Positions 1 to 4,925 are shown, counted from the first letter of the stretch. The stretch: DNA of 8,183 nt from a virus (IMGVR_UViG_2778261512_000016); one strand, 5' to 3'. The notes: generated from the letters alone by a model not told the origin. A program made the numbers and translations.

Positions 1-431
1 CCATGGAGACGACATTCGTGCTGGATGCACTGGAGCAGGCGTTATGGGCCCGTCGACCGTCCGGCACGGTCCATCACAGTGATAAAGGTTCTCAGTATGT
101 ATCGCTGGCCTACACACAGCGGCTTAAGGAAGCCGGATTACTGGCATCAACAGGAAGTACAGGCGACTCGTATGACAACGCGATGGCGGAGAGCATCAAT
201 GGTCTTTACAAAGCGGAGGTAATACACCGTAAGAGCTGGAAAAACCGTGCAGAAGTGGAACTGGCCACACTCACGTGGGTGGACTGGTATAACAATCGAC
301 GATTGCTGGAAAGGCTGGGCCATACTCCTCCGGCAGAAGCAGAAAAAGCTTATTATGCTTCCATCGGAAACGATGATCTGGCAGCCTGAGTTCACAGATA
401 AAACACTCTCCAGGAAACCCGGGGCGGTTCA
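1..431 (+). mobile_element. 3' portion of an IS629-type (IS3 family) insertion sequence; the element continues beyond the left window edge and its terminal inverted repeat ends at 431
   Basis: Transposase OrfB C-terminus in frame at 3..389. The minus strand at 409..431 reads TGAACCGCCCCGGGTTTCCTGGAGAG, matching my recollection of the IS629/IS1203 terminal inverted repeat. Not database-verified. Confidence 0.75.
3..389 (+). CDS. IS3-family (IS629-like) transposase OrfB, C-terminal fragment (5' end lies outside the window)
   Basis: The translation carries the C-terminal part of a DDE integrase-core domain (HHSDKGSQYVS ... DSYDNAMAESINGLYKAEVIHRKSW ... TWVDWYNNRRLLERLGHTPPAEAE), the pattern of IS3-family OrfB. 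The ORF is open from the window edge and stops with TGA at 387..389. Confidence 0.9.
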   Translation: METTFVLDALEQALWARRPSGTVHHSDKGSQYVSLAYTQRLKEAGLLASTGSTGDSYDNAMAESINGLYKAEVIHRKSWKNRAEVELATLTWVDWYNNRRLLERLGHTPPAEAEKAYYASIGNDDLAA

Positions 432-776: not shown

Positions 777-932
777 TTACTCCTCAGATTCGTAAGCTGT
801 GAAGACAGCGACCTCCGTCTGGCCGGTTCGGATTCGTACCTCGCAGAGGTCTTTCCTCGTTACCAGTGCCGTCACTATGACGGTTAAACAGATGACGATC
901 AGGGCGATTAACATCGCCTTTTGCTGCTTCAT
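777..932 (-). CDS. hokD: Hok/Gef-family small membrane toxin (type I toxin), 51 aa, closest from memory to HokD/RelF
   Basis: Translation MKQQKAMLIALIVICLTVIVTALVTRKDLCEVRIRTGQTEVAVFTAYESEE has the Hok hallmark (single TM helix, then RKxLCE ... EVAAF/VF ... YE). GGAG lies 9 nt upstream of the ATG at 932. The product is internal to the 70-aa ORF listed at 777..989. Confidence 0.85.
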   Translation of the reverse strand: MKQQKAMLIALIVICLTVIVTALVTRKDLCEVRIRTGQTEVAVFTAYESEE

Positions 933-989
933 AGCCTGCTTCTCCTTGCCTTTCGGCACGTAAGAGGCTAACCTACGTGTGTAGAGCAT
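777..989 (-). CDS. mok: mok-like reading frame (in-frame upstream extension of hok, as in mokC/hokC)
   Basis: ATG at 989 opens a 70-aa frame whose first 19 aa (MLYTRRLASYVPKGKEKQA) precede the hok Met. This resembles the in-frame mokC extension of hokC as I recall it. The function is regulatory coupling, not a distinct protein. Confidence 0.5.
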   Translation of the reverse strand: MLYTRRLASYVPKGKEKQAMKQQKAMLIALIVICLTVIVTALVTRKDLCEVRIRTGQTEVAVFTAYESEE

Positions 990-1045
990 AGATATGGCCT
1001 CAGATTAATGTTAAGCGTCTTGCCGGACGCGTAATGTTAACTGGG
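981..1045 (+). ncRNA. sok: Candidate Sok-type antisense RNA covering the mok start and SD region (boundaries approximate)
   Basis: Plus-strand promoter-like elements inside mok: -35 TTGCCT (946..951), 17-bp spacer, -10 TAACCT (969..974). The predicted start near 981 is antisense to the mok initiation region. A small hairpin GCGTC-ttgccg-GACGC lies at 1014..1029, flanked by TAATGTTAA direct repeats, and is followed by a U-rich stretch. Placement is by analogy to sokC/mokC geometry; the 3' end is uncertain. Confidence 0.35.
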
Positions 1046-1107
1046 GCTTTTCTCTATCTGCCTTTGGTGTTGATGCCCGAGGCAGATAGCCTCAAGCACC
1101 CGCAGCA

Positions 1108-1136: not shown

Positions 1137-1611
1137 TATGAAATCAATCAGAAAGGTGATCCATAAGAACAACAGCAAGACAATAAATTGCCATTACAGC
1201 AGCAATAGCCAGCGCACATTTGAGAACCAGCACCACAACCTCCTGTATTGGACGTACACCAGTCCTGATAAATATGAGGCTGTCTCGTCAGTGATTCAAT
1301 ACAACTACTGGGTATAGTTTCTATGATTTTGTTCTGTGGAAATGGAAAACAGCAACCAGTCACCACCAGCACTTCTTTAAACATGCCAAGTCACACGCAA
1401 GCCAACATTATAGTTCCCTTTGAGCGAGCAGATGAAGCTAGCAAAAATATTGATCACTTAGGATGCATTACTAACGTTGCTATGTGTTAACGAACAGGGA
1501 GTGGGTCATCAGCATAAATATTTATGCAGTAGGTTTCTTTTAGGACTAGATTAATCAAAAACATTTAGATAAAATTATAAAATCAAGAAATTGGTGGCAA
1601 TTAATCTTTAA

Positions 1612-1640
1612 TTGTGCCAGCTGAATTTCGTTATTATAGA
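1612..1640 (+). promoter_or_regulatory. Candidate promoter for the two-gene cargo operon
   Basis: -35 TTGTGC (1612..1617), 17-bp spacer, -10 TATAGA (1635..1640), followed by a T8 tract (1649..1656) and the RBS GGAGAG (1665..1670). The match is weak, and promoter-like hexamers occur readily by chance in AT-rich DNA. Confidence 0.25.
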
Positions 1641-1674
1641 AGATTAGCTTTTTTTTGAGTGTTTGGAGAGTAAA

Positions 1675-2370
1675 ATGTTAGAACCACCAAAGAGTTATAA
1701 TGAAATGTTGCCTATGCTCCATAAGGCGACTTTTATTACTACATTTATATTTTACCTATCATTAGTCATTTATGGCTACATGCCATTGGTTGGCATTAAT
1801 GCCAAGTATATCCCCCCCGTTAAAGACTACGAGGAATTTATTAAATGGATATTAACCTTTGGCATATTACCAATTGCATCTTCAGTTTTTTGGTCAGTAA
1901 TTAGTGGAGCTTTAGATCTACATAATAATGTAGCAAAAATTATTGGAATAAGGAAGATGTGGGATAGTCATTTAATTATTAAACCATTAGCAAAAATTGC
2001 AGGCGTTACGAGAAAATTAACTACTGATGAATCTCACAAGGTAATGAGTAAACTGTATTACCCAGAAGTTAAAGAGTTAAAAGACAAACATTACGTTGAA
2101 CTTTTCTGGAACAAAGTTTATTACTTTTGGGTTTTCTTTGAACATACAGTAATCGCATTTGTTACTATTTTAATAATAAGTATCGCCAAATTAACAAATA
2201 TATTCTCTGTTACTGGCTCTTTAATTAATCTTTGGTTGTGGATTATTTCTCTTGTCGCATTTGACTTCCTTATTTTCATAGCATCAGTTAAACCAAGAAC
2301 AGAAAGCCAAGTAAGACAAATACCTGATAGCAAAATAAAAGAATTCTTTAACAATAACAATATTTTTTAA
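1675..2370 (+). CDS. Hypothetical integral membrane protein, 231 aa, four predicted TM helices (two N-terminal, two C-terminal, separated by a charged soluble region of about 65 aa)
   Basis: ATG at 1675 with GGAG at 1665..1668 (the listed ORF starts at an upstream TTG at 1663). Hydrophobic segments: ATFITTFIFYLSLVIYGYMPLVGI, FIKWILTFGILPIASSVFWSVISGAL, FWVFFEHTVIAFVTILIISIAKL, VTGSLINLWLWIISLVAFDFLIFIASV. Low-GC codon usage. No family recognised by eye. Confidence 0.65.
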   Translation: MLEPPKSYNEMLPMLHKATFITTFIFYLSLVIYGYMPLVGINAKYIPPVKDYEEFIKWILTFGILPIASSVFWSVISGALDLHNNVAKIIGIRKMWDSHLIIKPLAKIAGVTRKLTTDESHKVMSKLYYPEVKELKDKHYVELFWNKVYYFWVFFEHTVIAFVTILIISIAKLTNIFSVTGSLINLWLWIISLVAFDFLIFIASVKPRTESQVRQIPDSKIKEFFNNNNIF

Positions 2371-2382
2371 ACGAGGTTGATT

Positions 2383-3036
2383 TTGAATTACAAAATAAAT
2401 GGAATAAACATACGTTCAGAAAATGCAGCGAAACCGCACACTATGCCATCTAACTATCTCTGTAAACAGATTGAAAGCACTAATAAAAATGGCAATGCCC
2501 TTGATTTTGGATGTGGAAAACTTAGATATTCAGAACAATTAGTAAATAAATTTGAAACTGTGACATTTTTAGATTCCAGAAGACAACTAGAAAGAGTGCA
2601 AATTATCAGAGGTGTACAAACCACGATTCCAGATTACGTGATAAATAACTATAAGAATGCTAATATTGTTTCTTATGAAAATATAGATAAAATAACAAAT
2701 CATTATGATTTCATACTTTGCGCAAACGTGCTTTCCGCAATTCCATGTGAATCCACAATTCACAAAGTCCTCAGTGCGATTAGAGAATTATTAAAGAGTG
2801 ATGGTGAAGCACTGATTGTCAATCAATACAAAAGTTCTTATTTCAAGAGGTACGAGAGCGGTATTAAACATTTGCATGGGTATATATACCAAAACTCTCG
2901 CAATGCTTTCTACTATGGTTTATTAGATGTGGATACTGTAAGTAAAATATGCTCAGATAATAATTTAGAAATAATAAAATCATGGAGCAAAGCAGGTAGT
3001 TCATATGTGGTTGTTGGTAAACATATACATATTTAG
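2383..3036 (+). CDS. Class I (Rossmann-fold) SAM-dependent methyltransferase-like protein, about 217 aa; not a DNA methyltransferase by motif content
   Basis: Motif I LDFGCGKL, acidic post-I residue in TVTFLD, motif II HYDFILCANVLSAIP, motif III LLKSDGEALIV. No DPPY/NPPY-type catalytic motif or target-recognition domain. Start is uncertain: TTG at 2383 sits 6 nt after GAGG (2373..2376); alternatives are TTG 2377 and ATG 2443. It begins 13 nt after the upstream stop, so it is probably co-transcribed or translationally coupled. Confidence 0.65.
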   Translation: MNYKINGINIRSENAAKPHTMPSNYLCKQIESTNKNGNALDFGCGKLRYSEQLVNKFETVTFLDSRRQLERVQIIRGVQTTIPDYVINNYKNANIVSYENIDKITNHYDFILCANVLSAIPCESTIHKVLSAIRELLKSDGEALIVNQYKSSYFKRYESGIKHLHGYIYQNSRNAFYYGLLDVDTVSKICSDNNLEIIKSWSKAGSSYVVVGKHIHI

Positions 3037-3350
3037 TTTATTTCAACAAATTATTAGAAAGAGTGATTTGCTTGTTAATTATTAGCTCGGCAGTGCCGGA
3101 TCAACATGACCCTGCCACTTAGGCCATTGCCGGTTTACCTACTTTTGTAAGGTTCAGCATGAAGTTTTTATATACTCTTCCTAATATCAATAGTGATGCT
3201 CGCTTATGTTAGCTGCTTCTTGTACATAGTAGCCTTCTCCGACAGTACTGCAATGAGCGGAGAGTAAAAGTCGATAAACAATAAGGAGGTTCACAATAAA
3301 TATTTCTCGGTGAAACTTTCAAAGCATTCTCTGTTTTGCTAAATCGACAA

Positions 3351-4250
3351 TTATAAATCAACAACATTTAGTGTTATATCAATATTATTTAGCCTTGCAA
3401 TCTCTGATGAATCACTTGCTATTTTAGCTTTTAATTTATCAATATTAATCATATCTTCATGGCTTATATAAACCATATCACCTTGGTTAACTTTAGATTT
3501 GTTCACTATGGCTTGAATAACAGACAAATCATCCATTACACCTCTCATAAATTTCACCATGCTTTGATCTTTGAAGTCAGATATCGATTTTGAACGTTGC
3601 TTACGTTGAATTGTTCCTTTTGTAATTACTTCATTAATTTCTTTTAAACCAGTGAGCATATCAGACAGACTGCCTTCGCAACTCATCCGATGTTTTATTG
3701 CATTGCGATTAATAATATTGAGTATAATTTCGAGTGAATCTTTATCACTCCATGGATGTAATGATGTATAATCATGATGGCGTCGAATGGCGTCAATCAT
3801 ATCCTGGACCATATCTTCATCTGCTTTATCGCAAAGTTCATTCACGAAATAGCTGGGGTCGATTATTTTACAATAACTTGGAGTTAGGTATCTTGAGGCT
3901 TTACAAAAACCAAAAATATATAAAGTAGAGTATTTATCTTTCAGACTCTCTCCTATTTCATTTATTTTCTCAAAAGATTCGATAGTTTTTTTAATTTTTG
4001 CTGGACTTGCATTCGTAGTAACTTGAACTGCTATCATGTTTTTATTATCAGCTAAATCAATGGCGGGAAAATTAACTTTAATCTGATTCATGTTTACCAG
4101 TTCACTCATTTTCAGCGCGCGAAACATAAAGATGGTCAATGACTCAATTATTCTTTCCATGTCATGAAAGCCTGCCTGTTTGCGTTGCGCGATATAAAGC
4201 TGGAGTAGTGCAATATCACTCTGTAAGTTTCTAATAAGTGGATCAATCAT
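3351..4250 (-). CDS. Hypothetical 299-aa protein; the N-terminal region resembles what I recall as the SMEK-type domain (NFPAIDLADNKNMIAVQVTT ... KIKKTIESF) and the C-terminal alpha-helical region contains an R-x4-H motif (RNAIKH) compatible with a HEPN-like RNase
   Basis: Long minus-strand ORF with ATG at 4250 and AAGGA 9 nt upstream; AT-rich codon usage matching the neighbouring cargo genes. Domain assignments are from memory and motif inspection only. Confidence 0.6.
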   Translation of the reverse strand: MIDPLIRNLQSDIALLQLYIAQRKQAGFHDMERIIESLTIFMFRALKMSELVNMNQIKVNFPAIDLADNKNMIAVQVTTNASPAKIKKTIESFEKINEIGESLKDKYSTLYIFGFCKASRYLTPSYCKIIDPSYFVNELCDKADEDMVQDMIDAIRRHHDYTSLHPWSDKDSLEIILNIINRNAIKHRMSCEGSLSDMLTGLKEINEVITKGTIQRKQRSKSISDFKDQSMVKFMRGVMDDLSVIQAIVNKSKVNQGDMVYISHEDMINIDKLKAKIASDSSEIARLNNIDITLNVVDL

Positions 4251-4286
4251 AGCTAATAATCCTTTTCAATGAAGCTGGAGGTGTGT

Positions 4287-4303
4287 TTAACTATTAGTTA
4301 AAT
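4287..4303. promoter_or_regulatory. Perfect 8+1+8 palindrome TTTAACTATTAGTTAAA in the 5' leader/promoter region of the 299-aa gene; candidate operator
   Basis: Read directly from the sequence, 37 to 53 bp upstream of the start codon at 4250. AT-rich context raises the chance-palindrome rate. Confidence 0.25.
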
Positions 4304-4502
4304 TTCTATTTTTATAGAAACAAGCTTTACAACTTCATCAAAGTTTCTCAAATCCTAATCCACTTTGCAAATCCACTAACCATGCTGAATGCTTTCTGTT
4401 GTTAAACATATCCGCTGCTGGCACCAAGCAGACAAACACACTAACTCTACCCTACTCCACAAAAGAGCCAATCAATATCTGAACTAATAAACTTTAATCT
4501 CA

Positions 4503-4925
4503 TCACTTCAATAAATATCGAGCATTTCCCTGATAGAATGCTAGTATGCGCTGCATAACTTCACTCTTCCGGCACTCGCGACAGATTATGTTCTGACGCC
4601 TGTCGTAGCGACGTATTTCTCCGTCAGGTAATGACCAGATAAGGTCCGGATCAACCGCAGATGGTTCCTTCAGCTTTGCCCTTGAGAGCTTTTTACGGGC
4701 ATTTTGCCAGTCCTTACGCGCCTGTTCAGACGGGAATAACCCGTAACCAGAGTTGTATACATCGCCGCTGGCAACCAGCTCTCTTGCGAGAACGCTCATC
4801 AGATATCTTGTCGCACCTGTCTTGACTTCCAGTTGCCGTAACGTCTCACGCCCACTCCGGCGTACGAGTTCAACAACCTGCCCTTTAATTTTTTCCCGCT
4901 CTTCTTGTGTAAAAACTTTTGCCAC
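4503..4925 (-). CDS. Hypothetical prophage protein, 140 aa, basic; function unknown
   Basis: GTG start at 4925 with AGGAGG 4 nt upstream; host-like GC content; it follows the replication initiator gene on the same strand. No family recognised. Confidence 0.55.
   Translation of the reverse strand: MAKVFTQEEREKIKGQVVELVRRSGRETLRQLEVKTGATRYLMSVLARELVASGDVYNSGYGLFPSEQARKDWQNARKKLSRAKLKEPSAVDPDLIWSLPDGEIRRYDRRQNIICRECRKSEVMQRILAFYQGNARYLLK

Follow-up and report, generated by a model that had tools for sequence, protein, structure and literature searches.

Small inner-membrane proteins encoded by phages and prophages, such as Imm of phage T4, SieB of phage lambda, and SieA of phage P22, are proposed to act once adsorption has taken place, halting the incoming phage. 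To our knowledge, none of these three proteins has an obligate methyltransferase partner. A different arrangement is found in CBASS/Pycsar systems with 2TM-4TM effectors, in Rst_2TM_1TM_TIR, and in Thoeris, where a multi-TM protein is coupled to a soluble enzyme. Coupling between a membrane protein and a methyltransferase is illustrated by chemotaxis, in which CheR, a soluble class I SAM methyltransferase, modifies the cytoplasmic helical part of the chemoreceptors and thereby sets their state.

The closest described relative of the locus analysed here is the gene pair ymfE-ymfD of the e14 prophage in Escherichia coli K-12. In a September 2026 preprint, YmfE was renamed Kunado and reported to be a membrane protein that defends against T5-like phages (10.64898/2026.09.05.749240). 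According to the preprint, deletion of hns in BW25113 or MG1655 exposes a defence against T5-like phages, the ymfE locus being silenced by H-NS. The defence was mapped to e14 and was lost upon deletion of ymfE, whereas cloned ymfE protected against T5-like phages using different receptors and did not block adsorption, so that the authors proposed superinfection exclusion at the step of DNA entry. In their screen of Keio deletions across e14, the only hits were lit and ymfE, but the screened set may not include a ymfD deletion. YmfE was handled as a single-gene system, although the cloned insert may also have contained ymfD, and neither ymfD nor any methyltransferase is mentioned (10.64898/2026.09.05.749240). 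Apart from a 2025 NAR paper that tested a ymfD knockout for mRNA m6A (see below), the literature searched contained no other paper on the function of ymfE or ymfD; the remaining mentions are e14 deletion lists or expression tables.

Here we describe a related gene pair in an 8.2-kb window (the whole stretch of viral DNA that was analysed, 8,183 nucleotides), hereafter genes A and B. In a distant-mode DNA search, 99% of the pair aligned with ymfE-ymfD of K-12, with a nucleotide identity of 68.9%, and the match was present in 283 genomes. At the protein level, A shares 60% identity with K-12 YmfE in a full-length, gapless BLASTP alignment of 230 aa (E 2e-108), and B shares 68% identity with K-12 YmfD over 214 aa, likewise at full length (E 2e-113). 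Judged by these alignments, the pair is a diverged homolog of the e14 genes rather than an orphan. The anti-T5 phenotype is known for K-12 YmfE from the one preprint, and A of the window would be expected to do the same job.

Prophage setting and junction of the two genes

The window is a portion of an E. coli Qin/DicA-type lambdoid prophage. Genes A and B lie in a low-GC cargo island inserted between the Ren-like DUF977 gene and hokD/sok, and share it with a single further gene, a convergent gene for a SMEK_N-domain protein (Table 1). Copies of the island with at least 99% identity occur in 146 of the 5,426 complete E. coli genomes, and some genomes have IS1, IS3, or ISVsa5 inserted within the island itself. 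Sibling Qin/DicA-type prophages carry different cargo in the slot between DUF977 and hokD (window boundaries 4450-4503 to 990-1400), including an ABC-three-component system with DUF2326 in one locus, unrelated hypothetical genes in two others, and small phage genes in a fourth, showing that the slot is a variable cargo hotspot. With its low GC content, the island would fit an H-NS target.

Table 1 Positions of annotated features in the window
Feature	Position	Strand	Details
IS3-family transposase, 3' end (integrase core)	3-389	+	Truncated by window edge
hokD toxin ORF, intact	777-989	-	Pfam HOK_GEF 2.9e-23; directly beside island
sok antisense RNA of hokD	927-1101	-	Rfam RF01794, 114 bits
Low-GC cargo island	about 1400-4450		~31% GC inside ~50% GC prophage (composition profile)
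Shine-Dalgarno GGAG of gene A	1665-1668	+	6 nt before ATG; read from sequence
Gene A, YmfE/Kunado-family inner-membrane protein, 231 aa	1675-2370	+	ATG 1675, TAA 2368-2370
A/B junction	2371-2385	+	ACG 2371-2373, GAGG 2373-2376, candidate starts TTG 2377 and TTG 2383
Gene B, YmfD-family class I SAM-dependent methyltransferase, 217 aa	2383-3036	+	219 aa if start 2377
SMEK_N-domain protein, 299 aa	3351-4250	-	Pfam 1.4e-22, NCBIfam 2.2e-30, PADLOC Aga_REase 8.6e-21
Rest of window, in order: Ren-like DUF977 gene, replication gene, ydaT-like gene, dicC, dicA			

The window locus and the e14 locus contain the same two families in the same order, and both are AT-rich prophage cargo adjoining another defence-type gene. 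They differ in their slot, as the window pair occupies the lambdoid DUF977-hokD position whereas the K-12 pair is found at the int end of e14, and in their neighbour, which is the convergent SMEK_N gene in the window and the divergent lit gene in e14.

The two loci also differ at the junction. The stop codon of e14 ymfE abuts the ATG of ymfD, whereas in the window 12 nt separate the stop codon of A from the TTG at which PGAP starts B, with a GAGG serving as Shine-Dalgarno sequence 6 nt upstream of this TTG. The other candidate TTG directly abuts the GAGG and is therefore unlikely to serve as the start. Alignment of the junctions revealed that in K-12 and in the ECO21 allele, which is 86.6% identical to the window allele, B begins at an ATG abutting the stop codon of A (TAA-ATG or TGA-ATG), and that the ACG of the window allele is the mutated form of this ancestral ATG. 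Hence the window allele starts B at a TTG because the original start codon was lost. As a result, B may be poorly translated in this allele and the B:A expression ratio may be lowered.

A scan for promoters and terminators gave no signal above that of shuffled sequence and no terminator downstream of B, and a search for inverted repeats 3' of B was uninformative. The convergent B and SMEK_N genes are separated by 314 nt (3037-3350) without a recognisable intrinsic terminator. This gap includes a short patch of higher GC content at about 3080-3130.

The SMEK domain has been described as a nuclease domain of short-pAgo partners (PMC10810196), and the C-terminal two-thirds of the window protein gave no family match. 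The SMEK gene accompanies A and B in 20 of the 25 copies on viral contigs (enterobacterial prophages) and in ECO21 (83% amino acid identity). In ECO21 the cassette as a whole is inverted with respect to the phage backbone. Neither e14 nor any of the 58 distant loci described below has a SMEK gene, and it is also missing from four viral loci whose downstream region is complete, the fifth being truncated where its contig ends. The SMEK_N gene is not a core part of the pair and is probably a separate, stand-alone defence gene of nuclease type.

Features of the membrane protein and the methyltransferase

Hydropathy analysis of A revealed four hydrophobic segments at about residues 18-40, 57-80, 148-172, and 183-205, together with a basic loop of about 70 residues (81-147). 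The AlphaFold (AF2) model (pLDDT 90.4) agrees with this assignment, placing TM helices at 8-32, 53-80, 138-174, and 183-214, and a three-helix cytoplasmic insert (82-133) between TM2 and TM3. Among 54 family sequences, H83, R93, D97, Y129, and W152 are kept in at least 90%, and the most conserved residues of the protein (these five together with D137 and E156) are located within or beside the insert, which points to the insert as the most natural place for a docking or acceptor site on A. No meaningful match or family model for A was found in Pfam, NCBIfam, PHROGs, or PADLOC, and comparison of predicted structures identified no specific fold relative. Similarity to transporter families was also not found. 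An exhaustive HMM search grouped the family into 225 clusters at 50% identity, nearly all of which contain proteins of 220-250 aa.

B carries the SAM-binding motifs LDFGCGKL (at residue 40), FLD (62), DFILCANVL (109), and LLKSDGEALIV (136), and exceeds the Pfam cut-offs of both Methyltransf_12 and Methyltransf_23. Its AF2 model is confident (pLDDT 89.3) and contains a Rossmann fold composed of a methyltransferase core and a small lid. In an alignment of 55 homologs, SAM motif I (DxGCG), the acidic residue of motif II, the C-x-NVLSAIP segment, and the N-terminal ENAAKP segment are at least 90% conserved, with D41, G43, G45, and D64 of B among the residues reaching this level. This pattern argues that B is a working enzyme. 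Moreover, purifying selection acts on both A and B (dN/dS 0.11-0.28). When B was scanned with regular expressions for the DNA-methyltransferase motif [DNS]PP[YFW] and the C5 motif PCQ, neither was found. Searching PDB sequences with the B profile gave marginal matches only (E about 1e-3), and most proteins structurally close to B are small-molecule methyltransferases. B resembles small-molecule and peptide methyltransferases, and no methyltransferase family with a defined function grouped with it. Taken together, the conserved motifs and the model suggest that B can catalyse SAM-dependent methyl transfer and belongs to the small-molecule/protein type rather than the DNA type.

These features largely agree with an earlier, sequence-only reading of the locus, which had recognised two tightly coupled ORFs about 12 nt apart, with B starting on a TTG after a GAGG. 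Its four-TM assignment for A is borne out by both hydropathy and the structural model, and all four SAM motifs that it listed are present in B. Its view of B as a non-DNA class I methyltransferase, and not the modification half of a restriction-modification system, is in line with the missing catalytic motif. The same reading described the operon and its parts correctly, but it missed the named homologs ymfE and ymfD and the Kunado of the preprint.

Linkage across genomes and fusion to TIR domains

The distribution of the pair was surveyed in one genome per species (GTDB) by scanning with the B profile, which yielded 58 loci in Pseudomonadota, Planctomycetota, Acidobacteriota, Bacillota, Nitrospirota, Verrucomicrobiota, and other phyla. 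An HMM of A was then used to identify YmfE-like ORFs at these loci. Such an ORF lies on the same strand as B and abuts or overlaps it at 57 of the 58 loci, the exception being truncated by a contig end. A precedes B in 43 of the paired loci and follows it in 14. Consistently, the same-strand abutting pair is present at all 25 loci on IMG/VR viral contigs. When the search was seeded in reverse with A homologs only about 20% identical to A of the window, an overlapping downstream Methyltransf_23 gene was found in 9 of 9 cases, one of them frameshifted. Two genes that stay adjacent through a swap of their order and through divergence to about 20% identity are, we consider, very likely to work together; the linkage is close to universal and argues that the pair is the evolutionary unit. 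Clustering of all neighbouring ORFs revealed no conserved third gene, and the sole recurring neighbours were recombinases and ImmA/IrrE-type regulators. None of the three conditions that the sequence-only reading had named as refuting it holds: A and B co-occur almost everywhere in these three surveys, A is not a known transporter, and B belongs to no methyltransferase group with an established function.

Some loci show occasional decay of B while A stays intact. Of two near-identical metagenomic contigs, L062 and L063 (6687-7352), one encodes an intact methyltransferase and the other no more than an 85-aa fragment of it, and at a further locus (L067) the methyltransferase is split into ORFs of 59 and 170 aa.

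Within Enterobacterales, the pair is carried by lambdoid, e14-type, and P2-like prophages. Megablast and tblastn searches did not find it in sequenced phage isolates, and only three plasmids matched. The YmfE family resembles T4 Imm, SieB, and SieA in comprising small inner-membrane proteins encoded by phages or prophages with a proposed post-adsorption block, but it shares no sequence or fold similarity with them and, unlike them, is spread over many phyla and also occurs outside prophages.

A second line of evidence comes from domain fusions. Natural A-B fusions were sought among the long family members, and the candidates turned out to be A-TIR fusions. Three proteins (P0279, L057, and L058) combine a YmfE-like four-TM domain with a C-terminal TIR domain (TIR_2, about 1e-21), which matches PADLOC PDC-S66 (6e-59) and Thoeris ThsB (1e-35). 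In L057 (671-3214) and L058 (5674-6846), the TIR-fused gene is located directly downstream of a YmfD-like methyltransferase gene. The L057 fusion also carries another TM segment and an Lcl_C (DUF1566) domain. A of the window itself has no TIR domain. The position of the fused TIR domains places the C-terminus of A in the cytoplasm, and their presence links the family to immunity by a route that does not depend on the K-12 experiment. In addition, distant members of the family are found next to genes for type I restriction HsdR, an OLD-family ATPase, and a PLD-helicase with NUDIX and WapI genes, as well as next to a separate TIR gene, integrases, recombinases, and phage-like modules. Like the CBASS/Pycsar, Rst_2TM_1TM_TIR, and Thoeris systems introduced above, the pair couples a small multi-TM protein genetically to a soluble enzyme and has TIR-fused variants; the partner enzyme of A, however, is a class I SAM methyltransferase and not a nucleotide cyclase, and none of the PADLOC models matches the TM protein A.

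Possible mode of action and competing explanations

In view of the linkage, the fusions, and the K-12 phenotype, we consider it reasonably probable that the region encodes a prophage-borne module of the ymfE-ymfD (Kunado) type, whose two genes, A and B, work together against phages. Protection by K-12 YmfE without a block of adsorption points to the inner membrane as the site of action, and to DNA entry or a later step. By analogy, A of the window would act as a four-TM gatekeeper or effector at this membrane. B would most plausibly dock on the conserved polar residues of the cytoplasmic insert region of A (H83, R93, D97, Y129, D137, and E156), and docked B would methylate either A or a membrane-proximal substrate, so as to tune, arm, or restrain A. 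Among its guesses, the sequence-only reading had listed a membrane effector accompanied by a sensor or modifier with a methyltransferase fold, which fits this arrangement.

The two partners need not contribute equally. As ymfE and lit were the only genes identified in the Keio screen, B is probably dispensable for the anti-T5 effect itself, and it is more likely that B regulates A or widens its range than that it forms the core of the effect. A stricter version, in which Kunado is truly two-component and a CheR-like methyltransferase docks on the insert of the four-TM gatekeeper and sets its state by methylating either the gatekeeper or a membrane-proximal ligand, is put forward tentatively, as we rate it well short of an even chance. 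CheR serves here as an analogy only, its homology with B being limited to the shared fold. Four observations count against this module reading: the defence phenotype comes from a single preprint on a protein no more than 60% identical to A, that preprint handles YmfE as a single-gene system and its screen had no ymfD hit, B of the window has lost its ancestral ATG, and searches of sequenced phage isolates yielded no copy of the pair.

The main competing explanation is abortive infection of the toxin-antitoxin kind, which fits the same data but which we regard as unlikely though deserving attention. According to it, A damages the membrane and is restrained by SAM-dependent methylation, by B, of A or of its target; host shut-off or depletion of SAM during infection would lift the restraint, and the cell would die or stall before phage release. 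The obligate adjacency of the two genes in both orders, with overlapping or abutting ORFs, is as expected for such a system, and the TIR domain fused to some relatives is a typical abortive-infection effector domain. Tight silencing of the K-12 locus by H-NS would fit as well, and the lack of a ymfD hit in the K-12 screen would be accounted for. However, the preprint reads the phenotype as a post-adsorption block and proposes superinfection exclusion. If B were an essential antitoxin, losing its ATG in an allele present in 146 genomes would carry a risk. Normal growth of the Keio ymfD knockout also speaks against this explanation but weighs little, given that the operon is silenced in wild-type K-12.

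It is improbable, in our estimate, that A functions alone as a single-gene superinfection exclusion protein and that B is a passenger with an unrelated metabolic or RNA-modifying role. The preprint names YmfE only and reports protection by cloned ymfE, and a 2025 NAR paper found that a ymfD knockout decreased mRNA m6A peak counts. The m6A decrease, however, occurred in all four unrelated knockouts and was judged non-specific by the authors of that paper, who also observed normal growth of the Keio ymfD knockout; a role of B as an mRNA m6A writer was rejected for this lack of specificity. A passenger would moreover not be expected to remain linked to A in 57/58, 25/25, and 9/9 loci, across phyla, in both orders, and down to about 20% identity, nor to stay under purifying selection with its SAM motifs kept.

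A detoxification or small-molecule resistance pair of the TehA/TehB type, consisting of a membrane exporter and a methyltransferase acting on a toxic compound, is very improbable. The comparison, drawn loosely in the sequence-only reading, has some basis in that both loci join a membrane protein gene to a small class I methyltransferase gene, B passes the Pfam TehB cut-off (24.4 bits against 20.4), and the structural neighbours of B are of the small-molecule kind. It fails at the more specific NCBIfam TehB equivalogs, whose cut-offs B misses widely (NF008992, 29 bits against 303; NF008405, 28 bits against 218), and at the membrane partner, as A is not a TehA-type transporter and has no similarity to a known transporter. 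The setting in prophage cargo and defence islands, the TIR fusion of some relatives, and the phage-defence phenotype described for the K-12 homolog in the preprint also speak against detoxification. The least probable reading is a system resembling restriction-modification, with DNA modified by B and restricted by the neighbouring SMEK protein. It draws on the described nuclease nature of the SMEK domain (PMC10810196) and its convergent position next to B in 20/25 enterobacterial copies, but is rejected because neither a (D/N/S)PP(Y/F) nor a PCQ motif is present in B, whose 217 aa leave no space for a target-recognition domain, and because the SMEK link is confined to enterobacterial copies whereas A is always present, leaving no conserved nuclease partner. 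The passenger, TehAB, and restriction-modification readings are thus each contradicted by a specific result.

Defence against T5-like phages by YmfE/Kunado is already known from the preprint (10.64898/2026.09.05.749240). What is new relative to the literature searched is that Kunado is almost universally coupled to a methyltransferase, that the pair is spread widely across phyla, and that TIR-fused variants exist. Both ymfE and ymfD still belong to the uncharacterised "y-genes" of E. coli K-12, and their linkage makes the role of YmfD directly testable in this model strain. The family of 225 clusters has no Pfam or PADLOC model and has so far been missed by defence-annotation tools. Carriage of the island by 146 of the 5,426 complete E. 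coli genomes may influence susceptibility to T5-like therapeutic phages. If the two-component arrangement holds true, methylation-controlled membrane immunity would represent a new mechanistic class of defence, distributed over many phyla and capable of being wired to TIR effectors as well.
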